Assembly (NCBI GenBank): GCA_963743525.1
Contig: CAVUQH010000008.1
Span: forward strand, 511,667-543,666
DNA: 32,000 nt
Direction: 5' to 3'
Source of the DNA: an uncultured delta proteobacterium
Lineage (GTDB): Bacteria > Myxococcota_A > Polyangia > Haliangiales > Haliangiaceae
The notes under the pieces were generated by a model, which saw only the letters and a program-made list of their open reading frames with translations, was not told where the DNA came from and ran no database searches. This document shows positions 2,074 to 32,000 of the stretch, in pieces (within the stretch, counting starts at the first letter, position 1; every line of letters starts with the position of its first letter). Position numbers and translations under genes: made by a program.

Positions 2074-3327
<1,254 letters not shown>

Positions 3328-7955: not shown

Positions 7956-8034
7956 CCTAGCCGGCGAGCCTGGCGCCACCCACGACCCGAGTCGTCGACC
8001 GGCGTGAAGAGCTAGCCTAGCCGGCGAGCTTGGC
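7912..8034. repeat. Tandem direct duplication, 62 bp + 61 bp, spanning the convergent gene junction
   Basis: Copy 1 (7912-7973): gcgccacccacgaccccgagtcgtcaaccggcgtgaagagctagcctagccggcgagcctg. Copy 2 (7974-8034) is identical except for one deleted c and two substitutions (a>g, c>t). Each copy contains both the TAG of the plus gene and the CTA (reverse TAG) of the minus kinase gene. Confidence 0.9.
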
Positions 8035-17886: not shown

Positions 17887-17963
17887 GCCACCCGAACGCC
17901 GTGGCCCGGCCCGGCTATTCCAGGGCCACCGCGACAACCGACGATCTCCGCTATGCTCGGCGC

Positions 17964-20900
17964 GTGAACGAGATCGTCGGCGACGGGCGCTTCGAGCTGG
18001 TACGCCGGCTGGGCGCAGGCGGCACCGGCGTGGTCTACGAGGCGCTGGACCGCGAGCGCGATCTGCGGGTGGCGCTCAAGCAGCTGACCCGCCTGGATGC
18101 GCAGTCGCTGTACCGGTTCAAGAGCGAGTTCCGCGCCTTGCAGGACATCGACCACCCCAACCTGGTGCGGCTGGGCGAGCTGGTCGAGGACGGTCGCAGC
18201 TGGTTCATGACCATGGAGCTGGTCGAAGGCGAGGAGATCGTCGCCTACTGCCGGCCCGGCGGCCGCGTCGATCACGACCGCGTGCGGCACACCTTTGCCC
18301 AGCTGGCAGCCGCCATCGAGGCGCTGCACGCGTCGGGCAAGATTCACCGCGACATCAAGCCGGCCAACGTCCTGGTCGATGTCCGGGGCCGCGCGGTGCT
18401 GCTCGACTTCGGCCTGCTGTTCGACACCTTCAGCACCGAGGCCGCCGAAGAAGCCGTGGTCGGCACCGCCGCGTACATGGCACCGGAGCAGGCGGCGTCC
18501 AAACACATCGGTCCAGCCGCCGATTGGTACGGCTTTGGCGCGGTCCTGTACGAAGCCCTCACCGGGGTGCAGCCGTTCGTCGGCAACCTGGTCGAGGTGC
18601 TCACGGAGAAACAGGTGCGCGAGCCGCCGCCGCCGCGCGAGCGGGCGCCCGAGACGCCTCCGGATCTCGACGCGCTGTGCACCGCGCTGCTTTCGTTCGA
18701 GCCGTCGGTGCGACCGGAGCCGCGGCAGATCGCGCGCGGGCTGGGCGTCGATGCCGCGCCGGCCACGAGCAGCGCGCCGGGCGTCAGCTCGTCGATGATG
18801 GGCGACGAGCTGTTCGTCGGCCGCGAGCCCGAGCTGGCGGCGCTGGCCGCTCTGTTCGAACGGGCGCGAAGCGGGCAGATGGCCCTCGGCTTCGTCGTCG
18901 GCGATTCGGGTGTGGGCAAGAGCTCGCTCCTGCGTCACTTCACCAACGAGGCGCGCGCCGCCGAGCCGACCTCGTTGATCCTGCGCGGCCGCTGCTACGA
19001 GCGCGAGTCGGTTCACTTCAAGGCGTTCGACGGGCTCATCGATGAGCTCAGCCGGCACATGACGCGAATGGGTGAGGAGGACAGCTGGGACATCCTGCCC
19101 GCCGACAGCGCGCTGCTGCCGCAGGTGTTCGCGGTGATGGGGCGCGTGCGCGGCATCGCTCGCGCGACGCGCCCGTTGCGTGGTCCCCGCGATCCCAGCG
19201 CGCTGCGCACGCGGGTCTTTGCCATCCTGCGCGAGATCTTCTCCAACCTCGCCGCCCGCCGGGTGGTGGTCATCACCATCGACGACTTCCAGTGGGCCGA
19301 CGCCGACAGCCAGGCGCTGCTGTCGGAGCTGGTGCGCGAGCCCGGCGCACCGCCGATCTGCCTGCTGGTGACCTCGCGCGACGCGTCGCTGGCGCCCGCC
19401 GGCGCCGAGGTGATCGAGGTGCCGTCGCTGCCGCGCGACGACGCCGAGGAGCTGGTCCGCCGACTGCTCGAGCACACGCGGGTCGCCGGTGCCGACGCTC
19501 GCGCCATCGCCGCCGAGAGCGGCGGACACCCGCTGTTCATCGACGAGATGGTCCGGCACGCGGCGCTGTCTGGTGAGCCGGGCATGCACCTCGACGACGC
19601 GATTCGCGCGCGGGTGGCCCGGCTGCAGCCGGAAGCGGCGCAGTTGCTCCGCGTGGTCTCGGTCGCCGGCGTGCCGCTGGCGACCGACGTGATCCGCGCA
19701 GTGGCGACCCTCGACCCGGGACAGATGGAACGCGCGACGTCGCAGCTGCGGGTGGCGCGCATGGTTCGCTCGCCGCGCCAGGGGCAGCTCGAGGTTTATC
19801 ACGACCGGGTGCGCGCGGCGGTGATCGAATCGATCGACGCCGGCGAGCGCCGGGCGATGCACGGGCGGCTGGCCGCGGCGCTCGAGACCCGCGACCTGGC
19901 CCGCGAGAGACCGGAGGTGATGGTCCGCCACCTGGTAGCCGCCGGCGATCACCAGGCTGCAGCGGCCTACGCTCTGCGCGCGGCCAAGCGCGCCGCTGAT
20001 GCCTTCGCCTTCGACCGCGCCGCGGACCTCTACCACCTGGCGCTGGAGAGTGGCGACCAGGACGCCGCCGGCAAGCGGGCTCTGCGCATCGAGCTGGCCA
20101 CGGTGCTGGCCCACGCCGGGCGCGGGCGCGATGCGGCGCCGCTCCTTCTCGAGGCGGCCAGTGGCGCCGATCCGGCGACCCGGACCGAGTGCCAGCGCCT
20201 GGCCGCGCGCCATCTCCTGCAGAGTGGCCACTTCGAGCAGGGGATCGACGCCCTGGGTGAGGCGCTGGCCGAGCAATCGCTGGTGCTGCCCAAGACGCCC
20301 AGGCGTGCGCTGGCGTCACTGTTGTGGCAGCGAATGCGCTTGCGCATGCGCGGGCTGCGCTGGCATCGCCGCCACGCGCGCGAGGTCGCCGACAGCGAGC
20401 TCGCCCGGGTCAACGTGCTCCTCGACGTCGGTGAGGCGCTGGGCATGTTCGACAGCATCCGCGGCGCCGACTTCCAGGTGCGCGGCCTGCGCGAGGCGCT
20501 GCGCCTGGGCGAGCCGACCAGGGTCGTGCGCGGGCTGTGCGTCGAGGCGATCTACGCCGCGTCACAGGGGGGCCGCAGCGTCGCCCGCTCACGCGATCTG
20601 GTAGTCCAGTTGCAGTCACTCGTGCGCGAGGTCGGCGACCCGTTCCTCGAGGCGCTTGCGGTCACCGCCGTCGGCATCGTCGACTATCTGGGCGGCGATC
20701 TGGTCGAGGCCAGCAAGCGCCTGGCCGAGGTCGTCGACCGCTTCGGCGATCTGGGCTCGTCGTGGGAGCTCAACAACGCGCGGCTGTTCCACTCGTTCAC
20801 CGTCCGCTGGACCGGCCAGCTCGATCGCCGCGCCGAGGTGCGCGAGGTCGACATCGGCGACGCCCACCGCCGCGGCGACATGTACATGGAGACCGCAGTG

Positions 20901-21512
20901 CGACTGACCAGCAGCTTGCTGCTGTTGGCCCAGGACCGCCCCGACGATGCCGAGCTCGACCTCGACGCGGTCTCCTGGCGGCCGCCGACGGTCGGCTTCC
21001 ATCTGCAGCACTGGTGGGAGCTCGAGGCCCGCACCGAGCTGGCGATCTATCGCGGCGACGTCGCCGATCGCCTGCCCGAGCTGGAGCCGCAGTTTCGCGC
21101 GCTGGGCAAGTCGCTGCTGTTGCGCATCCAGTTCGTCCGCGCCAACTCGGCCTGGGTGTGGGCGCGCTTGTGCCTGGCACTGGGCGAGGCGCGCACTGCC
21201 GAGGTCGCCCGCGCCGCGCGCAAGCTGGCCCACGAAGGCGTCGACAACGCCGCGGTCTGGTCGGCGCTCCTGCGCGCCGCGCTGGCTTCCGCGCGCGACC
21301 CGCGCGGCGCCGCCGAGATCCTGGCCGAGGCGGCGCCGGTCGCCGAGCGGATCGGCATGCCGCTCCTGGCCCGGGTCTGCGAGCTGCGGCGGGCGCAGCT
21401 GCGCGAGAACGCCTCCCACGCCGCCGACGCGATCCGCTGGTTGCGCGGGCAGGGCGCCGTCGATCCGGAGCGCTTGGCGACCGTGCTGGCGCCCGGCTTT
21501 ACTTTGCCGTGA
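17964..21512 (+). CDS. Ser/Thr protein kinase fused to AAA/STAND-type NTPase and helical-repeat C-terminal region (PknK-like architecture)
   Basis: LGAGGTGVVYEA, VALKQL, IHRDIKPANVLV, DFGL, GTAAYMAPEQ. Then FVGREPELAALAALFERARSG...VVGDSGVGKSSLL (Walker A) and VVVITIDDFQWAD (Walker B). About 600 aa of Ala/Leu/Arg-rich helical repeats follow. Start taken as GTG 17964; GTG 17901 is an alternative. Confidence 0.85.
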   Translation: MNEIVGDGRFELVRRLGAGGTGVVYEALDRERDLRVALKQLTRLDAQSLYRFKSEFRALQDIDHPNLVRLGELVEDGRSWFMTMELVEGEEIVAYCRPGGRVDHDRVRHTFAQLAAAIEALHASGKIHRDIKPANVLVDVRGRAVLLDFGLLFDTFSTEAAEEAVVGTAAYMAPEQAASKHIGPAADWYGFGAVLYEALTGVQPFVGNLVEVLTEKQVREPPPPRERAPETPPDLDALCTALLSFEPSVRPEPRQIARGLGVDAAPATSSAPGVSSSMMGDELFVGREPELAALAALFERARSGQMALGFVVGDSGVGKSSLLRHFTNEARAAEPTSLILRGRCYERESVHFKAFDGLIDELSRHMTRMGEEDSWDILPADSALLPQVFAVMGRVRGIARATRPLRGPRDPSALRTRVFAILREIFSNLAARRVVVITIDDFQWADADSQALLSELVREPGAPPICLLVTSRDASLAPAGAEVIEVPSLPRDDAEELVRRLLEHTRVAGADARAIAAESGGHPLFIDEMVRHAALSGEPGMHLDDAIRARVARLQPEAAQLLRVVSVAGVPLATDVIRAVATLDPGQMERATSQLRVARMVRSPRQGQLEVYHDRVRAAVIESIDAGERRAMHGRLAAALETRDLARERPEVMVRHLVAAGDHQAAAAYALRAAKRAADAFAFDRAADLYHLALESGDQDAAGKRALRIELATVLAHAGRGRDAAPLLLEAASGADPATRTECQRLAARHLLQSGHFEQGIDALGEALAEQSLVLPKTPRRALASLLWQRMRLRMRGLRWHRRHAREVADSELARVNVLLDVGEALGMFDSIRGADFQVRGLREALRLGEPTRVVRGLCVEAIYAASQGGRSVARSRDLVVQLQSLVREVGDPFLEALAVTAVGIVDYLGGDLVEASKRLAEVVDRFGDLGSSWELNNARLFHSFTVRWTGQLDRRAEVREVDIGDAHRRGDMYMETAVRLTSSLLLLAQDRPDDAELDLDAVSWRPPTVGFHLQHWWELEARTELAIYRGDVADRLPELEPQFRALGKSLLLRIQFVRANSAWVWARLCLALGEARTAEVARAARKLAHEGVDNAAVWSALLRAALASARDPRGAAEILAEAAPVAERIGMPLLARVCELRRAQLRENASHAADAIRWLRGQGAVDPERLATVLAPGFTLP

Positions 21513-23046
21513 GCTCGGCGGAGACGCCGTAGCGGCCCAACAGGTCGCCGGTCAGCGCCTCGAGCCCGGTCAGCGCCGCTTGCTGGTCAACCTTGGCCCG
21601 CTCCATACTGAGCCTGGCCTGCGCCAGCTCGTCCTGGCGCGCCAGCACGTCGAAGCTGCGCGACTCGCCGGCCTGGAACAGCACCTTCTCGTTGTCCAGG
21701 TTCTTCTCGGCCAGCTCGATGGCGACGCCGGCGACCTCAATCCGCTTGCTCGCGGCGCGGAGCAGGTTCATCGCCCGCACCACCTCGACCGACAGGTCGC
21801 GCTGCAGGGTGGCCGCGTCGAGCCTGGCCTGGCTGACCCGGCCGCGGGCCACGGCGTCGGCGCCGCGCGCGCCGCGGTTGCCGAGTGCCTGCCGGTAGGT
21901 GAGGCTGGCGGTGGCCGAGAACGACGAGAAGGTACCCATCTGCTTGAGCGTGTCGCCGACGCCGGTGCTGCTGGCGTCGGGGCCGATGCTGGCGGCCGCG
22001 TCGAGGTGCGGGCGCAGCGCGTCGGCAGCGACGTCAACGTCGACGCCCGCGGTCTTTTCCTGCAGCCGCGCCAGCGCCAGGCGCGGGTTCTGCTCGCGGG
22101 CGCGCGCCAGCGCCTTGTCGAGATCGAGCGCGGCCGGCACCTCCTTGGGCAGATCGGCCGCGGTCAGATCGATCTCGCCGGGGCCGATCTCCAGTCCGAC
22201 CAGGCGGCGCAGGCTGAGCGACTGCTCCGACCGCTGGATCTCGGCGGCCAGCACCGCTTGCTCGCGCACGGCGATGGCCTGCTCGACCGCCAGCGCCTCG
22301 GTCGGCGCGGCGACCTTCTGGCCGATGGCCAGGCGGGTGATGCGCAGCTGCTCGCGGGCCAGGTCGAGCGACTGTTTGCGGATCTCCAGGGTGCGGTCGG
22401 CAAAGGCGAGCTCCCAGTAGCCGGCGATCACCTGCTGCACGGCTGCCGTTGCGGCGATCTGCCGCTGCAAGCCGGCGGCGTCGTGGGCCAGGCGCGCGCG
22501 TCGCTGCTGGGCGCGCGCCACTTTGCGCCCGCTTCCGGCCAGCAGCGGGTGGGTGATGCTGGCGATCAGCGAGCCCTGATACGTCGTCGAGTCGGCGTTC
22601 ATGCTGCTGCCGGGGCCGAGGACGATGGCGTAGGTGGTCGCGGCCCAGCCGCCCTTCAGCTTGACGTCAACGGTGCCGCCGGTCGGCAGCGCCCGGGACA
22701 GCTCGCCCTGCATCGACAGGCTGTCGTCGGCGGTGATCTGGAACGGGTTGCCCGCGACCACGTCGTGGCGCAGCGACGCCCACAGGCCCGTCGCCGACAG
22801 CTGCCAGTCGTCAACGCCCTCGGCCTGCAGCTCGCCGGCGTTGGCGATGGCGACGTCAACCGCCGTGCGCGCCAGCTCCGGGTTCTGCTGCACGATGACG
22901 TCGAGCAGCTCGCTGAGGTGGATGGAGCGCGGTGGGCGCTGGTTGGCAGCTTCGGCCGAGACGTCGGACGGTTCGCCGTCCGCGGGCTGGGCGTGGGCCT
23001 GCGGTGCCAGCAGCGCCAGCGCCAGACAGGCGGTCAGGATCTTCAT
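21499..23046 (-). CDS. TolC-family outer-membrane efflux channel
   Basis: Internal ATG 23046 of ORF 21499..23112, preceded by GAGG. Signal peptide MKILTACLALALLAPQAHA-QP. LSELLDVIVQQNPELARTAVDVAIANAGELQA plus two-fold repeat organisation is typical of outer-membrane factor proteins. Confidence 0.85.
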   Translation of the reverse strand: MKILTACLALALLAPQAHAQPADGEPSDVSAEAANQRPPRSIHLSELLDVIVQQNPELARTAVDVAIANAGELQAEGVDDWQLSATGLWASLRHDVVAGNPFQITADDSLSMQGELSRALPTGGTVDVKLKGGWAATTYAIVLGPGSSMNADSTTYQGSLIASITHPLLAGSGRKVARAQQRRARLAHDAAGLQRQIAATAAVQQVIAGYWELAFADRTLEIRKQSLDLAREQLRITRLAIGQKVAAPTEALAVEQAIAVREQAVLAAEIQRSEQSLSLRRLVGLEIGPGEIDLTAADLPKEVPAALDLDKALARAREQNPRLALARLQEKTAGVDVDVAADALRPHLDAAASIGPDASSTGVGDTLKQMGTFSSFSATASLTYRQALGNRGARGADAVARGRVSQARLDAATLQRDLSVEVVRAMNLLRAASKRIEVAGVAIELAEKNLDNEKVLFQAGESRSFDVLARQDELAQARLSMERAKVDQQAALTGLEALTGDLLGRYGVSAELTAK

Positions 23047-23050
23047 CAGT

Positions 23051-24217
23051 TCAACCTCGCATTGCCTCGGCGGGCCGGATGCGCGCAGCGCGGATTGCCG
23101 GCAAGAAGCCACCGATGACGCCCATGATGGTGCCGAACAGCAGGGCCCAGAACAGGGTCCCCGCCGTCGGATCGAAGGTGAAGACGATCTCGGACCAGGT
23201 GGCGAAGTTCATCATCGAGAACTCGACGAAACCCATCAGCAGCGCCGCGACCATGCCGATGAGGCCGCCGGTCAGCGCGATCATGATCGCCTCGAGCAGG
23301 AACGACAGGAGGATCGAGAAGCGCGAGAAGCCGAGGGCGCGCAAGGTTCCGATCTCTCGCTGTCGCTGGGCGACGGCGCCCTGCATGGTGATCAGCGCGC
23401 CGAGCATGGCGCCGAACGAGAAGAAGATGGCGATGATCATGCCCATGATCTTCATGAACTTCGCCGTGTCCTCGCTGGTGTTCTCGTAGTAGGCGCGCTC
23501 GCGCATGGCGTCCAGCCCCAGCCGCTTGTCGCTCTCGACCTTGGCCGCGAAGGTGTCGTAGGCCGCGGGTGAGGTGAGCTGGACGGTCACCGACGACACC
23601 AGGTTGTCGCGGCCGAACGAGCTGCGCACGGTGTCAACGTCTGCCCAGATCTCCGACTCGTGCGACGAGCCACCATCCTCGAACACGCCGACCACCGTGA
23701 CCGGGCGGTTGGACTTGAGCTCGAAGCTGTCGCCCAGATCGACGTGGGAGAAGCGGCCGCGGATGCGATTGCCGATGATCACCTCGTCGGTGCCAGGCCT
23801 GGCCGGGCGGCCGTCGACGATGTGCACACCGCTGTGGAAGGTCAGGGCGTTGTCGGGAACCCCGCGGACCTGCACGTTCGACACCTTGCCCGGCTCGCCG
23901 ACCTTCTCCAGGGCGATGACCACGACCAGCTCGCCGACGCCGAGCGGACCGTCGGCGTCGCGCTTGACCCCGGGGCTGTCCATCACCAGCTTGGCGGTGG
24001 CCAGGTCGATGCTGCTCGACAGCTCGGCGTCGGAGCCGTCGCGAAGGACGATGGCCCGGTCGTTGCTGCCAGTCGCGGCCATGGTCTTCTTGATGCCGTC
24101 GCTGAGCATCATCGCCGCGGCCAGGACGAACACCACCAGGCCGATACCCAGCGCCGTGGCGATGGTGGTCGCCTTGCGCACCAGCAAGCTGCGGACGTTG
24201 TAGCTGATGGGGACCAT
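23051..24217 (-). CDS. ABC transporter permease, MacB/FtsX type (permease 2)
   Basis: N-terminal TM (ATTIATALGIGLVVFVLAAAMM), about 200-aa periplasmic domain, C-terminal FtsX module (REIGTLRALGFSR...). GAGGAG RBS present. Stop lies 4 nt before the tolC-like start. Confidence 0.85.
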   Translation of the reverse strand: MVPISYNVRSLLVRKATTIATALGIGLVVFVLAAAMMLSDGIKKTMAATGSNDRAIVLRDGSDAELSSSIDLATAKLVMDSPGVKRDADGPLGVGELVVVIALEKVGEPGKVSNVQVRGVPDNALTFHSGVHIVDGRPARPGTDEVIIGNRIRGRFSHVDLGDSFELKSNRPVTVVGVFEDGGSSHESEIWADVDTVRSSFGRDNLVSSVTVQLTSPAAYDTFAAKVESDKRLGLDAMRERAYYENTSEDTAKFMKIMGMIIAIFFSFGAMLGALITMQGAVAQRQREIGTLRALGFSRFSILLSFLLEAIMIALTGGLIGMVAALLMGFVEFSMMNFATWSEIVFTFDPTAGTLFWALLFGTIMGVIGGFLPAIRAARIRPAEAMRG

Positions 24218-24227
24218 GTCGTTCTCC

Positions 24228-25415
24228 TCAGCCGACCCGCCGGATGGCGTCGACGATCTCGATCCGCGAAGACCGGTACGCGGGGATGGCAGCGGCGACG
24301 ATACCGAGCAGGATCGACAGCCCGAGGGCCATCAGCGCGGTGCTGGAGCTGACGCGGAAGACGGGGAAGAAGTTGCCCATGTTCTCTTCCAGCGCCGGGC
24401 CGATGCCGTTGTTGATCATGCCGTAGGCGCACAGCAGACCCAGTCCACCGCCGATCAGCCCGAGCGTGGCCGCCTCGCCGAGGATGAACATCACCAGGTG
24501 TCGGGGCATGAAGCCGATGGCGCGCAGCACACCATACTCGTTGGTCCGCTCGCGCACGCCCATGGCGATGGTGTTGCCGAGGATCAGCAGCATGATGGCC
24601 AGGATCACCAGCGACACCACGTTGATCGCCGTGAGCACGGCGGTCAGCATGCCCATGAACGAGATCGCCAGCTGCCGTTCGCTCATGGTCAAGGTCTGGT
24701 CCGGGTAGCCGGAGAACAACTGATCGATCTTCTTGGAGATCTCGGCGCTCCTGGACGGGTCACTGATGCGGCTGGCGATCCAGCCGACCTTGTCCTTGCG
24801 CTGCTCGGGCAGCGACTCGTTCATGTAGTTCCAGTGGAAGTAGAAGCTGTTGCGGTCGGCCGACTTGCGCGTGGCGCGGTAGATGCCGGAGATCTCGAAG
24901 TCCCAGTTGCCGGGGAAGATCGTGCCCTCGAGAGTGACCTTGTCACCGACTTTCCAGCCGAACTTCCGCGCCAGCTGATCGCCGACGATGGCGCCGCGGC
25001 GGTTGCTCAGCCACGCCTTCTTCTCCTCCGGCGTCAGGCTGATCTCGTCGTAGACGCGGAGGAACGACTCCGGGTCAACGGCCATGTTGGCGAAGAACTC
25101 CTTCTCCTTGTTGGGGTTCTTGGCGCCGAACCAGTTGGCCCAGGTGACGTCGGTGACGCCCAGCGGCTGGCCGTTGACGTCCTTGTTCTGCCGCAGCTTG
25201 TCCACGTAGCTCAGCGGCAGCGGCATGATGAAGGTGATCTTGTGCCGCGTGCCCAGGCGATCCTTGGCCGCGTACTTGGCCCCCGCCTGCCAGGCGTCGA
25301 GCACGGTGCGCAGGCCCATGAACGCCAGCATCGTCACGACGATCGCCAGGATCGTCAGCCCCGTGCGCACCTTGTTGCGCAACAGGTTCTTCGCCGCGTA
25401 GGTGGCGGCGTTCAT
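24228..25415 (-). CDS. ABC transporter permease, MacB/FtsX type (permease 1; clearly different in sequence from permease 2)
   Basis: AAKNLLRNKVRTGLTILAIVVTMLAF, periplasmic domain, RERTNEYGVLRAIGFMPRHL FtsX module. ATGA overlap with the ATPase stop. Confidence 0.85.
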   Translation of the reverse strand: MNAATYAAKNLLRNKVRTGLTILAIVVTMLAFMGLRTVLDAWQAGAKYAAKDRLGTRHKITFIMPLPLSYVDKLRQNKDVNGQPLGVTDVTWANWFGAKNPNKEKEFFANMAVDPESFLRVYDEISLTPEEKKAWLSNRRGAIVGDQLARKFGWKVGDKVTLEGTIFPGNWDFEISGIYRATRKSADRNSFYFHWNYMNESLPEQRKDKVGWIASRISDPSRSAEISKKIDQLFSGYPDQTLTMSERQLAISFMGMLTAVLTAINVVSLVILAIMLLILGNTIAMGVRERTNEYGVLRAIGFMPRHLVMFILGEAATLGLIGGGLGLLCAYGMINNGIGPALEENMGNFFPVFRVSSSTALMALGLSILLGIVAAAIPAYRSSRIEIVDAIRRVG

Positions 25416-26167
25416 TGCAGCTGTCCCTTGTCGAGCTTGCGCACGATCGACGCGCGCTCGGCGGCGGCGGGATCGTGGGTGACCATGATGATGGTCTTGT
25501 CGAACTCCTTGTTGAGCTTGCCCAGCAGGTCGAGAACTTCACTGGCGCTGTCGCGGTCGAGGTCACCGGTCGGCTCGTCGGCGACGATGATCTTGGGGTC
25601 GTTGACGATGGCGCGGGCGATGGCCACGCGCTGTTCCTGACCACCGGACAGCTGCTTGGGCAGGTGGCTCACGCGGTCGGCCAGGCCGACTGCCTTGAGC
25701 GCGATGTTCGCCCGCTTCTTGCGCTCCTTGCCCGACAGGTGGGTGAGCAGCAGCGGCAGCTCGACGTTCTGCAGCGCGGTGAGCACCGGGATCAGGTTGA
25801 ACGACTGGAAGACGAAGCCGATGTTGGCCGCGCGCCACCTGGCGCGGGTGCCCTCGCTCATGCCGCCGACGTCGGCGCCGTCGATCTGCACCGTGCCCCG
25901 CGTCGGCACGTCGAGGCCGGCGATCAGGTTGAGCAAGGTCGATTTGCCCGAGCCTGACGGCCCCATCAGCGCCTCGAAGGCGCCCTGCTGCACGTCGAGG
26001 TCGAGGTCCTGGAGCACGTCCAGGCGCTCCTTGCCGCGCCAGTAGGTCTTGCTGATCTGGCGCAGCTTGATGATGTGCTCGATCTCTTTGGTGCCGCGAT
26101 AGACCGCTTCTTCGCCCGCGCGCTCCTTCTCGTCACCCGTCTCCGTCTCCGTCGTCGCGTCGCTCAT
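25412..26167 (-). CDS. ABC transporter ATP-binding protein (MacB/LolD-like)
   Basis: Internal ATG 26167 of ORF 25412..26590. GPSGSGKSTLLN (Walker A), LSGGQEQRVAIARA (signature), IIVADEPTGDLD (Walker B), MVTHD (H-loop). ATGA overlap with the adaptor stop. Confidence 0.92.
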   Translation of the reverse strand: MSDATTETETGDEKERAGEEAVYRGTKEIEHIIKLRQISKTYWRGKERLDVLQDLDLDVQQGAFEALMGPSGSGKSTLLNLIAGLDVPTRGTVQIDGADVGGMSEGTRARWRAANIGFVFQSFNLIPVLTALQNVELPLLLTHLSGKERKKRANIALKAVGLADRVSHLPKQLSGGQEQRVAIARAIVNDPKIIVADEPTGDLDRDSASEVLDLLGKLNKEFDKTIIMVTHDPAAAERASIVRKLDKGQLQ

Positions 26168-27405
26168 CCGTCGGTCCTTTCTTCGACGCGCTGTCCGTCG
26201 GACAGCGACCCGCTTGGATTCTTGACCACGTGGGTGCCCGCCGGCGGGCCCTGCGTGAGTACGAAGCCGCCGGCGTATTTCTCGCCCACGGCGACGGGGG
26301 TCATGCGCAGCTTGCCGTCGTCGATCACGAACACCACCTTGCTGCCGCCGCGGTTGGTGATCGCATTTTCGGGAACCACCAGCTTGGGCTGTTCCTTCAC
26401 CGCTTCGGCGTCGAGCGCCTGGGTCAGGAAGCTGGCGCGGGCGCTCATGTCGGGCAGCACGCCGGTCGGCTCGTCGACGAACGAGACCTTGACCGTGACC
26501 GTGGCCTTGGCCCGGTTGACCACCGGCACGATCTCCTTGACCTTGCCGCGGAACCGCTTGCTGGGGAACGCATCGAGGACAATCTCGCACGGCCCGCCCG
26601 CCTTGACCATGTGCAGGCGGCCTTCGGGGACGTCGGTCTCGACCACCAGGGTCGAGAAGTCGGCGATCTCGACCGCGCCGGTCAGCTCGGCGGCGGCGCC
26701 GCCGGGAACCGGTGTGATGACCTCGCCGATCTCGGGCGGCTTGTTGAGGATGCGGCCGGCGAGCGGCGCCAGCACGGTGAAGCCGTCGAGGTTGATCTCG
26801 AGCGCCTTGACCTGAGCCTGGGCGGCCCGGACCTCGGCGTCGGCGGCGCGGGCCGACTGCTCCAGCGAGCTCTGCCGCGCCTCGAGGTCGTCGGCGGTGG
26901 CCTCGGGGCGGACGCCGCGGGTGGCCAGCTTGCGCGCGCGCTCGGCCTGCAGCCTGATCTCGGTCAGGCTGGCGCGGGACGCCTGGGCACGGGCGCGGGC
27001 GGCGGCGACCTGGGCCTGGGCCTGGGCGATGGCGGCCGTCTGATCAGAGGTATCGAGGACGTACAGCACGTCGCCGGCCTTCACCGTCTGTCCCTGCTGC
27101 ACGTCAACCCGCGTCACCTTGCCGCTGACCTTGGGCGCGACCTTCGAGATCCGCTCGGCCTGAACGTAGCCGGTGCTGGTCAGCTCGATCGACGCCTGCG
27201 CCGGCGACACCAGCGTGATCTCGGTGACGTCGACCTTGGTCTGGAACACCTGGGCGCGCAGGTACGGGACCGCGAGGAAGTAGATCGCTCCACCGGCCGC
27301 GGCCACGATGACCAGGGCGATGATGATCTTCCTGGCCAAACCGCTGGAGGGCGGCGTTTCGCGGTCGATACGGAGGGACGCAAGGTCGCTGGAAAGGTCC
27401 GACAT
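26164..27405 (-). CDS. Periplasmic adaptor (HlyD/MacA membrane-fusion family)
   Basis: TM anchor KIIIALVIVAAAGGAIYFLAV, lipoyl-like VSGKVTRVDVQQGQTVKAGDVLYVLD, long Ala/Gln/Arg coiled-coil hairpin, barrel segments. Start is ATG 27405; 27423 and 27447 are alternatives. Confidence 0.85.
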   Translation of the reverse strand: MSDLSSDLASLRIDRETPPSSGLARKIIIALVIVAAAGGAIYFLAVPYLRAQVFQTKVDVTEITLVSPAQASIELTSTGYVQAERISKVAPKVSGKVTRVDVQQGQTVKAGDVLYVLDTSDQTAAIAQAQAQVAAARARAQASRASLTEIRLQAERARKLATRGVRPEATADDLEARQSSLEQSARAADAEVRAAQAQVKALEINLDGFTVLAPLAGRILNKPPEIGEVITPVPGGAAAELTGAVEIADFSTLVVETDVPEGRLHMVKAGGPCEIVLDAFPSKRFRGKVKEIVPVVNRAKATVTVKVSFVDEPTGVLPDMSARASFLTQALDAEAVKEQPKLVVPENAITNRGGSKVVFVIDDGKLRMTPVAVGEKYAGGFVLTQGPPAGTHVVKNPSGSLSDGQRVEERTDG

Positions 27406-27447
27406 GGGCAGCTGCCGGAACATAGCGGAGCAGTTGCCCGCTGGCAA

Positions 27448-27548: not shown

Positions 27549-28502
27549 TCAGCCCGATAGCGCGTCGGCCAGCGCCTCGGCGACCAGCGCGGCGTTGGAC
27601 AGCCGCTCTTGCGGCTCCTTGGCCAGCACCTGGGCGAAGAACTGGTCGATGCGCGGGCCCAGCTGCGGCTTGAGCCCGTAGGCGCTGGGGATCGGATCGC
27701 GGACGTGGGCGACCATCGCCTCCAGCGGCGTGCGCCCGCTGAACGGGCGGATGCCGGTGAGCATCTCGAAGGTGATGATGCCCAGGGCGTAGATGTCACA
27801 GCGCCAGTCGGTGACGTGGCCGACCTTGGCCGCCTCGGGCGCGAGATAGGCGGGCGTGCCGACGGTGGTGTGCTTGCCGGTGATGTTGACCGGCGTGCGC
27901 TGCGAGTCGGCCAGCTGCGCCAGGCCGAAGTCGAGGACCTTGACGAACGGCGACAGCGGCGACGGGTAGTCGGTGAAGTGGATGTTCTCCGGCTTCAGAT
28001 CGCGGTGGACGATGCCGGCGGAGTGGGCTTCGCCCAGGGCGCTGGCGCACTGCGCGACGATCGACAGGGTCTCGCCCGGCGCCAGCGCGCCCTGGCGCTC
28101 GAGTCGGTCGCGCAAGGTCTCGCCCTCGAGGTACTCCATGACGATGAACGAGTAGCCACTGGGCGTGGCGCCGCAGTCGTAGAACTGGATCGCGTGGGGC
28201 GAGCGCAGTCGGGCCACCGCCTCGACCTCGCGGCGGAAGCGCACGGCGGAGTCGTCGTCGGTGAGCTCGGTGCGCAGCACCTTGACCGCGACCTCGCGCC
28301 CGACCGACACCTGGTGGGCGAGGTAGACGCGCGCCATGTTGCCGGCGCCCAGCAGGCGGCGCACCCGGTAGCGGCCGAGCAGGCTGTGGCCGATCAGGCG
28401 ATCGGTCTCGTCGGCGATGGGGTTGGGGTCGAGGATGGGTGGGACGGTCAACAACACGGACTCCGGGTCAAGCAAGCGCCGCGCCAGGCCGGCATGCACC
28501 AA
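27549..28502 (-). CDS. Eukaryote-like Ser/Thr protein kinase, kinase domain only (about 317 aa)
   Basis: LGAGNMARVYLA, VAVKVL, VHRDLKPENIHF, DFGLAQ, GTPAYLAPE. No sensor or TM domain. The start is non-ATG (TTG 28502 or GTG 28499). Confidence 0.88.
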   Translation of the reverse strand: MVHAGLARRLLDPESVLLTVPPILDPNPIADETDRLIGHSLLGRYRVRRLLGAGNMARVYLAHQVSVGREVAVKVLRTELTDDDSAVRFRREVEAVARLRSPHAIQFYDCGATPSGYSFIVMEYLEGETLRDRLERQGALAPGETLSIVAQCASALGEAHSAGIVHRDLKPENIHFTDYPSPLSPFVKVLDFGLAQLADSQRTPVNITGKHTTVGTPAYLAPEAAKVGHVTDWRCDIYALGIITFEMLTGIRPFSGRTPLEAMVAHVRDPIPSAYGLKPQLGPRIDQFFAQVLAKEPQERLSNAALVAEALADALSG

Positions 28503-28640: not shown

Positions 28641-29351
28641 TCACGGCTCTGCTCCCAGCAGCTCCTCCCAGTGGGTGGAGAAGGCGAGGTAGTCGACCGG
28701 ATCGAAGCGCCCGGCGTCGAGCGCATCGCGCTGGGCCGGGGTGAGCGAGTCGCGGAAGCGGCCGGCCATCTCGTCGAGGAGGTCGAGGATGTCGCGGGCG
28801 AAGCCGACCACCGTTGCCGGACGCCACGGCGGCATCACTTCGCCGTTCATCACCGCCTCGACCACGCGCTGGCGCACCTGGTCGGCGGTGTCGCGGACCG
28901 TCTGTTCGAGGGCGTCGCGCTGGCTCTGGTCGAGGCCGACCCGCCGGGCAAAGTCGTCGAGGTTGCGCTGGACGCGGGCGCGCTGCGGCGCGAGCAGCTC
29001 TTTGGCCACCGGCAACATGCGGTCGCGGTAGGCGAGCATGTTCTCGCCCGGCAGCGGCGCAAACGCGGCGGCCAGCGCGCCGACTTCGGTGGGCACCTTC
29101 ACCCGCGGCATCTCCCGCGGGGGCGCGTTGGCCGTGTCGTTGCGCACGGGGTCATCACCCGCGGGCGCGGGCGACCTGTCGCCGGGTCGATCGCGTTCGG
29201 CGCGCACCGCGGCCAGGGCGTGATCGAGCTCGCGCGCGGCGTGCTCGTCGCTGAGCGCGGCGCCAGCCTTGCACGCCTGCCACCACGCAAGTACCGTGGT
29301 GGTCGCGAAGAGCAGAGTGAGCGTCCGCCACGTCTGCGTCGTCACCGGCAC
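28641..29351 (-). CDS. Exported/anchored protein with LTxxQ-type motifs (Spy/CpxP/ZraP-like, tentative)
   Basis: GTG start. Signal/anchor WRTLTLLFATTTVLAWWQA. Two helical motifs, GLDQSQRDALEQTV and SLTPAQRDALDAG, about 65 aa apart resemble the paired LTxxQ motifs of the CpxP/Spy family. GC3 bias is good. Confidence 0.55.
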   Translation of the reverse strand: MPVTTQTWRTLTLLFATTTVLAWWQACKAGAALSDEHAARELDHALAAVRAERDRPGDRSPAPAGDDPVRNDTANAPPREMPRVKVPTEVGALAAAFAPLPGENMLAYRDRMLPVAKELLAPQRARVQRNLDDFARRVGLDQSQRDALEQTVRDTADQVRQRVVEAVMNGEVMPPWRPATVVGFARDILDLLDEMAGRFRDSLTPAQRDALDAGRFDPVDYLAFSTHWEELLGAEP

Positions 29352-29398: not shown

Positions 29399-31051
29399 AT
29401 GACACGGCGATTCCATGCCGTCGTGCTGTTGTTTGGGGTTTGTGCGTGCAGCGCCGCGGATACCCGCGTCGATCCGGCAGAGCTGTCGCTGCGCGACCTG
29501 CTGGGCATGTCGCCGGAGGTCGCCGCCGGCTGGAGCGACAGCGAGCGGGCGGCGGCGCGCGGCGTCATCGAGGCGCGGCTCGACGATGCCGCCGGCGCCG
29601 AGTCGGTGCCGCTCGGCGCCGGGCGCACCGATCGGCAGTCGATGATCGCCAGCCTCGACAGCTACGACCGGCTGCGCGACGGTCGCGGTCGCGACGCGGT
29701 TCCGCTGGCGCGCGCCGACCTCGACGGCTTCGACGTGATCGTGTCGCCGATCGGCATGGCCGGGCTGGAGGCGGAGGAGGGTGTCGACGCGCCGATCGAG
29801 CTGAAGGGCTGGGATCGCCCGGTGCTGGCGGAGCTGGCGCGCACGAGGCGGCGGGTGATCGTCGCGCTGGCGCGGGCGTCGGGCGGCACCGAGGAGACGC
29901 TGCGCGTCGAGCCGGCCGAACAGGTCGGGTTCGGCGCCGCGCGGCTGTCGGATCCGCCGGCGCTGCTGGTCAACCCGGTGCTGCTGGCGGCCGTCGACCC
30001 GGAGGCCGACGCCGACGCGCAGCCGGCGGCGATGCGCAGCGGCGGCGGCGGGGCGCCGTCGTCGGCTCCGGCGCCGGCGCGCGCGGTGGCCGCGGGCAAC
30101 CCCTACGCCTTCTATGGATCGGTGGCCGAGTGCGCCGCCGCCGAGCGGTTGCGCTGCGAGTCGTGCCTGCCGTCGTCGACCTGCGACGCCGAGTCGCGCG
30201 ACGCCAGCGACGGCAACGCCGAGTGCACGGCGCTGGCTGCCGACGACGGCGTCGGCTATTTCCTGTTCTGCGCCAACCTGGCGCTGGCGATCCGCACGGT
30301 CGAGACCTGCACGGGCGAGGCCGTGCCCGGCTGCACGCCGGTGTCGACCGCCAGCAATCAGATCAGCGCGCTGGATGCCAACCGCGACTTCGTCGACGAT
30401 CCGGTCTGCCGCGACGGGCTGGATTCGTGTCTGAGCAAGCTGTACGGCGACCCCGCCGACGACTACCCCGGCCCGCCCAGCGACGCCGGCCCGTCGCCCG
30501 AGCCGCCGCCGGCGCGCGATCCGACCGCGTCGTGCGGCGGCAGCGACACCAACTGCGATTTCTCGCCCCAGTGCTCGGCCAGCTGCGGTGATCCCGACTG
30601 CTCCAACACCATCGACTGCAACTCGAGCTGCGACGACAGCTCGAGCGGCAGCAGCAGCGGTGGGTGCGGCGGCTGCGGCAGCGACTCGTCGAGCTCCGGC
30701 GGCGGCAGCTGCAGCTCGTGCGGCAGCGACTCGTCGAGCTCCGGCTCCGGCTGCGACTCCAGCTGCGGCAGCTCGAACAGCGGCGGCAGCGGCTGCGGCA
30801 GCTGCAGCAACGACTCGAGCGGCGGCAGTGGCTGCGGCGGCAGTTGCGGCGGCTCCAACAGCAGCGGCAACGGTTGTGGCAGCAGCAGCTCGTCGAGCTC
30901 GAGCTGCAGCGCATCGGGCGCCACGGCGCGGCACACGGCGGCGACGGCGGTGGCGGTCATCTGGGCGATGTTCCCGCTGCCGCTGCTGATGTGGCTGCGG
31001 CGGCGCGAGCGCCGGCGATCCACTGACGGCGACGACGGAGGTGAGTCGTGA
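29399..31051 (+). CDS. Cys-rich Ser/Gly-repeat lipoprotein with MYXO-CTERM-like C-terminal sorting tail
   Basis: MTRRFHAVVLLFGVCAC-SA signal/lipobox-like N-terminus. About 31 Cys. C/S/G array GGCGGCGSDSSSSGGGSCSSCGSDSSSSGSGCDSSCGSSNSGGSGCGSCSNDSSGGSGCGGSCGGSNSSGNGCGSSSSSSSSC. Tail is C-SASGATARHTAATAVAVIWAMFPLPLLMWL-RRRERRR. Confidence 0.75.
   Translation: MTRRFHAVVLLFGVCACSAADTRVDPAELSLRDLLGMSPEVAAGWSDSERAAARGVIEARLDDAAGAESVPLGAGRTDRQSMIASLDSYDRLRDGRGRDAVPLARADLDGFDVIVSPIGMAGLEAEEGVDAPIELKGWDRPVLAELARTRRRVIVALARASGGTEETLRVEPAEQVGFGAARLSDPPALLVNPVLLAAVDPEADADAQPAAMRSGGGGAPSSAPAPARAVAAGNPYAFYGSVAECAAAERLRCESCLPSSTCDAESRDASDGNAECTALAADDGVGYFLFCANLALAIRTVETCTGEAVPGCTPVSTASNQISALDANRDFVDDPVCRDGLDSCLSKLYGDPADDYPGPPSDAGPSPEPPPARDPTASCGGSDTNCDFSPQCSASCGDPDCSNTIDCNSSCDDSSSGSSSGGCGGCGSDSSSSGGGSCSSCGSDSSSSGSGCDSSCGSSNSGGSGCGSCSNDSSGGSGCGGSCGGSNSSGNGCGSSSSSSSSCSASGATARHTAATAVAVIWAMFPLPLLMWLRRRERRRSTDGDDGGES
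30590..30915 (+). repeat. Imperfect tandem coding repeats (about 45-bp period) built from TGC/AGC/TCG/GGC codons
   Basis: Exact 27-nt duplicate tgcggcagcgactcgtcgagctccggc at 30674-30700 and 30719-30745. Related degenerate units are on either side. The composition creates spurious long ORFs in several frames on both strands. Confidence 0.8.
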
Positions 31052-32000
31052 GGCGCGCCGTCGTCGACTGGCTGGCGCAGTGGATCGGCCGCGACTGGGC
31101 GGCGGTGCTGGCGCCCGGGTGGTTCACCTTTGCCGGGCTGGCGGCGATTGCGGCCGGGCTGCTGGCGGCGCGTGCGGCGCGGGATCGGGGCCAGGACCCC
31201 GAGCGCGTGCTGCGCGCGATCGCCTGGGGCTACGTCGCCGCGGTCGTCTGCGGCATCGCCGGACCGATGCTGTGGGACGCCGGCGATCGACTGCTGGCCG
31301 GTCGCGCGCCGCGCTTGCGCTGGGCCGGGATGACCTCGTGGGCCGGTTTCGCCGGCGGCATCGCCACCATGGCCTGGGTCTGGCGGCGCTCGGCGCCGGC
31401 GGGCGCGCCGGCGTCGGCGGTGCCGCTGTTCGATCTGTTGGTGGCGCCGATGGGCGTGGCGCTGGTGTGCGCGCGGCTGGGCTGCTTCGTCGCCGGCTGC
31501 GACTTCGGCAAGGTGTCGTCGGCGCCGTGGGCGATGCGCTTTCCCGCTGGCAGCCCGGCCTGGCACGCGCACGTGTCCGCCGGTCTGGTGCCGAGCGGGA
31601 GGGCGTGGTCGCTGCCGGTCCACCCGACCCAGCTGTACGAGGCGTTTCTCGGGTTGGCGATCGCGGTCGTTGCGCTGTGGCTCGGTCGCACCGCCTGGGC
31701 GCGCGCGCGTGCCGGGCGGGTGGCGCTGGCCGGCGTGATCCTCTACGCCGTCGGGCGCTTTGTCATCGAGGATCTGCGCGCCGATATGGGCCGCGGCTTC
31801 TTTGGTCCGCTGTCGCTGGGCCAGGCGATGTCGCTGGCGGTCGTGGTCGCGGCGGCCGCTGCGTTGGCCGCCACCCACCGCCGCGCGATCGTTGCGGCGG
31901 CGGGCGCCGCGCTGGTCGCGCTGGTCTTCGCTTCGCACCCGGCCGCCGCGCAGGAGAGCGAGCCGCGGCCGATCGATCCGTACGGGGGCGGGACCGCGTC
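31048..32000 (+). CDS. Lgt-family (prolipoprotein diacylglyceryl transferase-like) membrane protein with extra C-terminal TM/extension; 3' end outside the window
   Basis: Absent from the ORF track (no stop in the window). I translated the frame by hand from GTG 31048, which overlaps the upstream TGA as GTGA, and found no stop to position 32000. Motifs: CARLGCFVAGCDFGK (cf. E. coli GRIGNFINGELWG), LPVHPTQLYEAFLGLAI (cf. HPSQLYE), YAVGRFVIEDLRAD (cf. GxFRFxxEFFRxPD), GPLSLGQAMSLAVV (cf. GLSMGQILS). Then AIVAAAGAALVALVFASHPAAAQESEP... Confidence 0.8.
   Translation, partial: MRRAVVDWLAQWIGRDWAAVLAPGWFTFAGLAAIAAGLLAARAARDRGQDPERVLRAIAWGYVAAVVCGIAGPMLWDAGDRLLAGRAPRLRWAGMTSWAGFAGGIATMAWVWRRSAPAGAPASAVPLFDLLVAPMGVALVCARLGCFVAGCDFGKVSSAPWAMRFPAGSPAWHAHVSAGLVPSGRAWSLPVHPTQLYEAFLGLAIAVVALWLGRTAWARARAGRVALAGVILYAVGRFVIEDLRADMGRGFFGPLSLGQAMSLAVVVAAAAALAATHRRAIVAAAGAALVALVFASHPAAAQESEPRPIDPYGGGTA

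Follow-up and report, generated by a model that had tools for sequence, protein, structure and literature searches.

The stretch of DNA analyzed here, in the following called the window, comprises 32,000 nt of contig CAVUQH010000008.1 from an uncultured delta proteobacterium of the Haliangiaceae. At its downstream edge lies the 5′ part of a gene for a divergent member of the family of Lgt, the phosphatidylglycerol:prolipoprotein diacylglyceryl transferase, which attaches lipid anchors to proteins of bacteria. Its start codon overlaps the stop codon of a gene for a cysteine-rich protein, called the partner below, and both genes are accompanied by a small third gene. The Lgt-like gene and its junction show the following features, all on the plus strand:

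31048..32000, +, Lgt-like gene, 5′ part (codons 1–317): Lgt core with seven transmembrane segments, helix 8 and the start of a linker; the gene continues past the window
31037..31051, +, coupling junction: GGAGG at 31037–31041, a 6-nt spacer and GTGA
31117..31131, +, GWFTF, the Trp of which aligns with E. coli Tyr26
31474..31509, +, Lgt signature variant RLGCFVAGCDFG: R143 and G154 kept; N146C, N149A, E151C and D at 152
31621..31644, +, HPTQLYEA block: equivalents of E. coli H196–E202 conserved
31753..31779, +, GRFVIEDLR block: R239 and E243 equivalents, with the Y235 equivalent just upstream
31810..31833, +, LSLGQAMS, a further Lgt block
31876..31950, +, helix 8, signal-peptide-like, HRR-AIVAAAGAALVALVFASHP-AAA: basic n-region, hydrophobic core and an AxA site before QE
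31885–31932, +, extra hydrophobic segment AIVAAAGAALVALVFA within helix 8
31951..32000, +, start of the Pro-rich linker QESEPRPIDPYGGGTA, which in relatives leads into an 8-stranded barrel beyond the window

An Lgt-like gene coupled to the gene of a cysteine-rich partner

The Lgt-like frame runs from GTG at 31048 to base 31998, spanning 317 codons without a stop. Its start codon (31048–31050) overlaps the TGA at 31049–31051 that terminates the partner open reading frame (ORF; 29399–31051). An earlier note on this DNA, made from the letters alone, had described the open frame and the GTGA overlap; we found both as described, together with a GGAGG ribosome-binding site. The note had also been correct that the gene is missing from the list of ORFs, because this list omits ORFs running off the source sequence.

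Protein searches yielded ~100 homologue clusters with 45–61% identity, most of them 480–555 amino acids long and several labelled Kofleriaceae (Myxococcota; Polyangia; Haliangiales). An orthologue with 82% identity and the same gene order lies on a 2.16-Mb contig of a GTDB genome (L001:10001-11506, 501 amino acids), and the ratio of nonsynonymous to synonymous substitution rates (dN/dS) of the Lgt-like gene against it is 0.23. Based on these homologues, the close orthologue and the dN/dS value, the gene in the window is real, and the ORF seen here is the first ~60% of the full gene. An antisense ORF of 491 amino acids (30463-31938, minus strand; G+C fraction at third codon positions 0.82; rich in Arg, Pro and Gly) spans the junction between the partner and the Lgt-like gene. 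As the other strand is taken up by two conserved genes, this frame is almost certainly a high-GC shadow ORF.

The pairing is conserved in relatives. In four loci with 47–51% identity (L023, L024, L025 and L028) the upstream gene ends 4 bp inside the Lgt-like start, and the same 4-bp overlap is found in a short-form relative with 38% identity (L026). The junction reads GTGA or ATGA in these five loci and in L001, and the upstream proteins of the relatives are homologous to the cysteine-rich protein of the window with 35–81% identity. The translational coupling proposed in the earlier note thus holds, as the overlapping adjacency is kept down to 38% identity.

We sorted 80 additional metagenome loci, obtained by a generic-pattern scan that returned mostly general Lgts, according to their Lgt motif type. 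Counting only loci with an upstream flank of 700 nt or more, an LspA signature adjoins 9 of 16 GCC-type genes versus none of 28 GCD-type genes (Fisher p = 1.6e-5). Of 13 assessable loci with the motif GCFx[AS]GCD, 11 have a partner-like gene upstream, usually overlapping by 4 bp; three of these 11 calls were made by eye or tblastn, since they missed crude thresholds. None of the other GCD sub-types has such a gene. The synteny of the pair, which the earlier note had suggested to examine, is therefore conserved across a clade of soil myxobacteria. The phylogeny that it had likewise proposed places the partner-linked enzymes in a distinct group: in a neighbour-joining tree of 106 Lgt cores (258 columns, distances capped for saturation), all of them belong to one clade of 23 members with a bootstrap support of 60/60 and no lspA-linked member inside. 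One clade member, L003, is from a Polyangiaceae metagenome-assembled genome (MAG); MAGs labelled Polyangiaceae also encode another Lgt type (P0280, P0304). Against L001, dN/dS amounts to 0.24 for the partner gene and 0.45 for the third gene, so that with the value of 0.23 for the Lgt-like gene all three genes of the module are under purifying selection.

Catalytic residues and the cysteine-containing signature

The window protein matches the Pfam LGT family (PF01790) with 115.3 bits (gathering cutoff 24.9; E = 3.7e-33; profile positions 13-238 of 240). It misses the equivalog cutoffs of TIGR00544 (58.7 vs 118.9 bits) and NF000778 (79 vs 334 bits), the NCBIfam Lgt equivalog models all being below cutoff, and the full-length L001 orthologue reaches 49.6 bits on TIGR00544. 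The description as a divergent Lgt-family gene in the earlier note is therefore appropriate, and the blocks HPTQLYEA, GRFVIEDLR, LSLGQAMS and RLGCFVAGCD on which it had been based are all present where the note had placed them. The E. coli Lgt structure 5azb aligns with the window protein (E = 4e-6), with RLGNFINGELWG opposite RLGCFVAGCDFG.

We assessed residue conservation in an alignment anchored on E. coli Lgt numbering, comparing 78 family members with 120 relatives of the two Lgt copies of locus L004 (see below). Equivalents of R143, R239, E243, Y235, D129, G154, H196 and E202 are present in all 78 family members and in the window protein; judged by its residues, the Lgt catalytic core is intact. 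The position of Y26, which is essential in E. coli (PMC13251419), is occupied by W in 73 of the 78 members versus Y in 119 of 120 lspA-operon-type Lgts. Both N146 and H103, likewise essential in E. coli, are replaced, N146 by C in all 78 members and H103 by W, F or Y, and E151 is replaced by C in all 78. Variation at H103 and N146C are natural variants already on record and are also seen in lspA-linked Lgts. Features specific to the family are Y26W, N149A and the D at position 152, and the motif R-x-G-C-F-x-A-G-C-D-[YF]-G is essentially invariant across it.

The earlier note had taken the Cys in place of Asn as a sign of new chemistry. This part of its proposal fails. In L004, a locus of a Polyangia MAG, an ileS-lspA-lgt-lgt operon encodes two Lgt copies, both with Cys at N146 and E151 (RIGCFLNGCCYG and RLGCFAAGCCWG), and the second one clears the TIGR00544 equivalog cutoff with 135.5 bits. 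N146C and E151C are found in 120 of the 120 relatives of these lspA-operon-type copies, and two more GCC-type Lgts (L109, L110) are encoded in ileS-lspA(-lspA)-lgt operons, in which lspA was confirmed by Pfam Peptidase_A8. Distant Lgts in which N146/E151 are replaced by C or C/D have been described, and the Lgt of L. interrogans with N146C partly complements E. coli (PMC13251419). Because the lspA-operon Lgts share the Cys variant and the literature already describes it, it is the lineage norm, an outcome that the note itself had named as speaking against its idea. New chemistry was hence rejected as an explanation of the Cys.

Further Lgt types were encountered on the way through these loci. 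The tandem lgt genes of L004 (8830-9753 and 9755-10633) differ in a Cys-rich periplasmic insert (NLCRAP...CHPPKDCF), which is found only in the first; both size classes have abundant relatives (5654 matches, E <= 1e-10). Another motif class, RxGC[FW]xVGDDYG (Cys146, Asp151, Asp152), occurs in 21 metagenome loci (L057, L064, L066, L067, L071-L074, L078, L080, L083-L085, L094-L097, L102, L103, L105, L106) and adjoins an LspA signature in none of the 14 loci with enough flank. Four loci (L027, L111-L113) encode a Polyangiaceae-type Lgt of ~500 amino acids (MHPILFRIPLP..., R[IL]GCYLFGCDFG) with extra C-terminal transmembrane segments and an acidic tail. This type recurs beside an oppositely oriented DUF6250-like gene; in two of the loci it precedes TsaE, and it is not beside lspA.

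The C-terminal barrel, the partner protein and the third gene

Behind the Lgt core, the extra hydrophobic segment pointed out in the earlier note is indeed present, and it corresponds to the signal-peptide-like helix that precedes a barrel in the full-length relatives. In all 74 full-length members, a basic n-region and a hydrophobic core are followed by a small-x-small site and then by Q, D or A. The AF2 (AlphaFold2) model of the homologue P0034, calculated with an alignment of 74 sequences, has a mean pLDDT (predicted local distance difference test) of 85. In it, the Lgt core is followed by a helix at 275-288 and a disordered linker, after which come eight long strands at 309-459 (pLDDT 88-98). 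With Foldseek, the strands matched the OmpA transmembrane domain (1qjp, template modeling score 0.81, root-mean-square deviation 3.0 Å), NspA, OmpX, Ail, OmpW and PagL; the scores for 1bxw and 1p4t were 0.70 and 0.67. The β-signal G-x-x-[YF]-x-F in the last strand has G in 74 of 74, the aromatic residue in 73 and F in 52 members. The C-terminal domain of the full-length relatives is confidently modelled as an OmpA-like 8-stranded barrel; Pfam OMP_b-brl was detected in only three of the homologues listed. The window ends 16 residues past the site between AAA and QE.

E. coli Lgt is said, from the work of Pailler in 2012 and of Mao in 2016, to have seven transmembrane segments and a cytoplasmic C-terminus. 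Because of this orientation, helix 8 would pass outward through the membrane, as a signal peptide does. The linker following it ranges from ~2 to ~80 residues and is shorter than ~18 in 20 of the 74 members. Because a barrel residing in the outer membrane would be out of reach in these short-linker members, cleavage, or separate translation of the barrel, would be required there. An uncleaved tether from the inner to the outer membrane was rejected as a general model, since these 20 linkers are too short.

Some other observations concern fused or shortened forms. P0109 and P0113 are Lgt-domain proteins of ~425 amino acids with PDZ matches (PF17820, PF00595) and thus another kind of Lgt fusion. 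The ileS gene of the nanopore assembly ERZ26871208 is broken up into two ORFs (L109 284-3016), probably by a frameshift error. Because P0031, of 278 amino acids (L028 6001-6837), stems from the same assembly, it may be an assembly truncation and not a natural barrel-less form. The third gene follows P0031 with a 4-bp overlap, despite this possible truncation.

The features of the partner gene are:

29399..31051, +, partner gene, 550 amino acids: lipobox signal peptide, two folded domains, Cys/Gly/Ser array and Cys-helix-Arg tail
29447-29449, +, lipobox Cys17, nearly invariant across the family
30560-30925, +, disordered Cys/Gly/Ser-rich array
30905-30931, +, last Cys motif CSASGATAR
30947-30997, +, terminal helix AVAVIWAMFPLPLLMWL
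30998-31018, +, Arg cluster RRRERRR

The partner contains 31 Cys residues, 19 of them in the last 180 residues, in agreement with the about 30 thiols estimated in the earlier note. Conserved blocks are DPx[DE]LxLRDxLG, LLVNPVLLAA and GNPYSFYGS..EC, together with ~10 conserved Cys. AF2 modelling with an alignment of 50 sequences predicted confident domains at ~25-200 and 240-370 (pLDDT ~95), disorder rich in Cys, Gly, Ser and Asp at 388-509, and then the terminal helix. A Foldseek search for a solved structural relative of this fold gave none (best E 0.5). The partner family is small and of restricted distribution, as a set of 1.84 billion contains 139 representative clusters of it. Its low-complexity region (30560-30925 in the window, 9428-9900 in L001) consists of near-repeats such as GSCSNDSSSGGGC and is Ser/Gly-rich in the window and Asp/Gly-rich in L024, L025 and L028. 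Because the length and composition of this region vary strongly between relatives, rapid repeat turnover is suggested.

The tail follows the pattern C-[NSQ]-[VIA]-[ASTG]-x-[RK], 8-15 residues, W-[AG]-[LF]-x-P-[LVI] and RRR[EA]RR, which is kept in ~40 representatives. The earlier note had called it a MYXO-CTERM tag. The tripartite design of that class is present, namely a Cys motif, then a transmembrane helix and last, at the very C-terminus, an Arg cluster, but the assignment to MYXO-CTERM by the curated models did not stand. The MYXO-CTERM model gave no match on the window tail at E <= 10. The L023 tail scored 16 on TIGR03901 against a cutoff of 20, ten further partner tails reached at best 13.4 on TIGR03382 versus 15.85, and GlyGly-CTERM gave ~13 versus 15.5 on partner tails, so that every curated model failed.

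The third component lies on the other side of the partner gene:

28641..29351, −, third component, 236 amino acids: N-terminal anchor, helical; motifs YRDRxLPxA..APQRxRV, LTPxQR and FDxxDYLxFSxxWE

Its gene is divergent from the pair in the window and in L001. In L023 it shares the strand of the pair and precedes it; in L024, L025 and L028, likewise on that strand, it overlaps the Lgt-like gene at its 3′ end. It was seen in L001, L023, L024, L025, L028 and L029, with identities among relatives of 33-68% and a changing position. The third protein remained below the Pfam thresholds of LTXXQ (13.4 vs 24.3 bits) and Metal_resist (13.5 vs 29.2 bits), at E = 0.08-0.13, and a profile search against the PDB yielded nothing relevant.

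The remaining window is an ordinary myxobacterial chromosome with rpsB-tsf-pyrH-frr, NrdR, SDR and purine genes, Ser/Thr kinases and a MacAB/TolC-type efflux system; lspA, a second Lgt or a CPBP protease are not found within it. The efflux cluster (21499-27447, minus strand) is tripartite and encodes an OEP (TolC-like) protein, two MacB/FtsX permeases, an ABC ATPase and an HlyD-type adaptor. Because it is adjacent in the window and L001 and not in more distant relatives, it is probably unrelated to the module. In a protein of 1203 amino acids (17901-21512, plus strand), an AAA_16/STAND-type NTPase comes after a Ser/Thr kinase domain, and three more Ser/Thr kinases are encoded at 2074-3327, 8017-9978 and 27549-28502.

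Possible function of the module and comparison with known systems

We predict from these sequence features, at roughly even chances of being right, that the gene encodes a dedicated Lgt paralogue which lipidates its partner. The enzyme would keep thiol diacylglyceryl-transfer chemistry and act on the partner, with the lipobox Cys or the Cys beside the C-terminal helix as the target. Helix 8 would serve as an internal signal peptide exporting the C-terminal part. At least in the short-linker members, signal peptidase would cut, letting the OmpA-like barrel reach the outer membrane, where it would probably be the anchor or receptor of the partner. The third protein of ~220 amino acids would be a periplasmic helper.

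Several observations weigh against a dedicated lipidating paralogue. The partner has a canonical lipobox which any Lgt could serve, so that the need for a dedicated enzyme is not obvious. L003 and L070, both basal in the clade, as well as L047 are without a partner-like upstream gene. Neighbouring accessory genes have dN/dS values of 0.12-0.22, similar to the 0.23 of the enzyme, and this value is without power to separate the readings. For the delivery part, the barrel of the window gene is assigned by orthology with the 82% identical L001 protein, because the window stops before the barrel domain. The internal AxA-type site is a candidate signal peptidase site in an Ala-rich sequence, where chance matches come easily.

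The gene could instead be the housekeeping Lgt of this Kofleriaceae lineage, the barrel, the Cys-rich lipoprotein and the third gene being lineage accessories or one substrate among hundreds, which we consider rather unlikely. Such an enzyme would be expected to keep an intact catalytic core, as is the case here. Cys146 and Cys151 are normal in lspA-linked Lgts and known in functional ones such as that of L. interrogans, the family is widespread among MAGs labelled Kofleriaceae, and a second Lgt has been demonstrated in no carrier genome, which counts against a paralogue as well. The TIGR00544 scores of 49-59 bits versus 113-135 bits for operon-type Polyangia Lgts fit less well, as does the replacement of the E. 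coli-essential Y26 by W. Moreover, lspA adjacency is 0/28, and the enzymes form a separate clade with 100% support that co-varies with one partner gene. The Polyangiaceae MAG member of this clade, L003, also speaks against a housekeeping role, as MAGs labelled Polyangiaceae encode another Lgt type. Multiple copies are common, since ~10% of genomes carry two or more lgt copies (PMC13251419). Together, these points indirectly favour a paralogue over a housekeeping enzyme.

As for second copies, searches were seeded with the operon-type Lgts of L004 and with those of the Polyangiaceae type, and the best 120 matches were all close relatives of the seeds. Two operon-type Lgts (P0128, P0188) and a Polyangiaceae-type Lgt (P0241) share the assembly ERZ26871208 with P0031 of the partner-linked clade; this assembly resembles a whole metagenome. 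The tetranucleotide correlation between the window's own halves is only 0.72, too low to place the Lgts of this assembly in one genome. The supplementary tables of PMC13251419 contain no Haliangium, Kofleria, Sorangium or Myxococcus rows.

A different explanation is that the Lgt-like domain does not lipidate the partner, having lost its activity or transferring glycerol-lipid or glycerophosphate to another acceptor. The possibly metal-binding partner, the Spy/ZraP-like third protein and the barrel would then constitute an envelope stress, metal or structural module with the enzyme as scaffold. Y26W and the other changes at E. coli-essential positions point in this direction, as does the M. smegmatis homologue MSMEG_5408 (Y26H, N146C), which is presumed to have low activity (PMC13251419). 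The partner array, with ~19 Cys together with Asp, Ser and Gly, resembles metal-binding low-complexity regions, and the third protein shows weak LTXXQ/Metal_resist hints (E = 0.08-0.13). These hints stay below threshold and the PDB profile search was empty. R143, R239, E243, D129, Y235, G154 and H196 are invariant in the family, which argues for retained catalysis, and the nearly invariant lipobox Cys and the conserved terminal Cys motif fit a lipidation substrate. We therefore regard a non-lipidating role as improbable, if worth keeping in mind. That the long fused ORF is an artefact of a lost stop codon or an assembly error, the real genes being a short Lgt and a separate outer-membrane protein, appears very improbable. 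Some family members are short (264-322 amino acids), P0031 comes from the nanopore assembly that splits ileS, and in some members a Met directly precedes the signal-like segment (MRDAGPR...), which makes a separate start of the barrel part conceivable. The frame is continuous, however, in the GTDB genomes L001 and L002 and in over 70 independent sequences, which differ in source and assembler.

Lgt is usually regarded as a single housekeeping enzyme for every lipoprotein. A well-supported Lgt clade co-evolving with one cargo would clearly exemplify, for a diderm, protein lipidation dedicated to a substrate. In the largest branch of the clade, enzyme and outer-membrane barrel are joined in one frame, an architecture of which our literature search found no description. 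The three-gene module would also be a compact and tractable system for asking if an Lgt-type enzyme can lipidate a Cys beside a C-terminal anchor. If the gene is merely the housekeeping Lgt of its lineage, the barrel fusion stays a curiosity and the wider interest falls.

E. coli Lgt (PDB 5AZB/5AZC) belongs to the same Pfam family, is alignable over residues 34-280 and has its catalytic equivalents kept in the window protein. The latter differs in N146C, E151C, N149A, Y26W, the change at H103 and the sub-equivalog score. This type is also not near lspA or thyA-type housekeeping neighbours, adds helix 8, the linker and the outer-membrane barrel, and is coupled to one partner gene. The GCC-type Polyangia Lgts (L004, L109, L110) share the Cys at 146 and 151, but have Y26, N149 and C152, score 113-135 bits on TIGR00544 versus 49-59 bits in the family, and lie beside lspA with no barrel and no partner. 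OmpA, OmpX, NspA and OmpW resemble the modelled barrel in fold, in the preceding predicted signal peptide and in the terminal β-signal; in the relatives, a single frame holds a polytopic inner-membrane enzyme and then the barrel, behind which comes a Pro-rich tail. The likeness of the third protein to the periplasmic chaperones CpxP, Spy and ZraP (LTXXQ) consists of a sub-threshold match.

There is a precedent for extra lgt copies encoded beside lipoprotein cargo; known second copies include MSMEG_5408, plasmid-borne lgt by conjugation lipoproteins in Firmicutes and the Streptomyces pairs (PMC13251419). Like the family described here, second copies are extra divergent homologues altered at Y26 and N146, some of them next to lipoprotein cargo. 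For none of them has a fusion to an outer-membrane barrel been reported, nor coupling to a protein that combines a Cys-rich array with a C-terminal Cys-helix-Arg tail.

In the model put forward for the MYXO-CTERM/myxosortase (MrtX) system, an unidentified 'Lgt-like acyl-transferase' lipidates the Cys of the MYXO-CTERM ahead of cleavage; its authors favour the housekeeping Lgt for this role, as E. coli is able to carry out the processing (PMC11980579). The tripartite tail of the partner, preceded by a disordered Cys-rich region, resembles this class, and within this pathway TraA works with a barrel protein, TraB. The partner tails fail TIGR03901 and TIGR03382 and have their own motif C-[NS]-V-A-R ... 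W-A-L-x-P-L-P, there is no CPBP protease in the window or the examined loci, and the partner has an N-terminal lipobox too. A bolder proposal, which we hold to be distinctly unlikely, is that the clade represents the enzyme type missing from MYXO-CTERM-class sorting. It would lipidate the Cys just outside the C-terminal anchor helix, in a topology inverted relative to the lipobox and with one enzyme for one target. Once signal peptidase had set it free, the co-translated OmpA-like barrel would act as receptor of the lipidated cargo in the outer membrane. If true, this would be a self-contained envelope-spanning lipidation-and-delivery module. Sorting pairs of one enzyme and one target do exist, such as MrtJ and the JDVT-CTERM protein (Haft). 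In these pairs, as in the module, the genes of a membrane processing enzyme and of its single target with a sorting tail are conserved neighbours; the enzyme here is an Lgt-family transferase instead of a CPBP protease.

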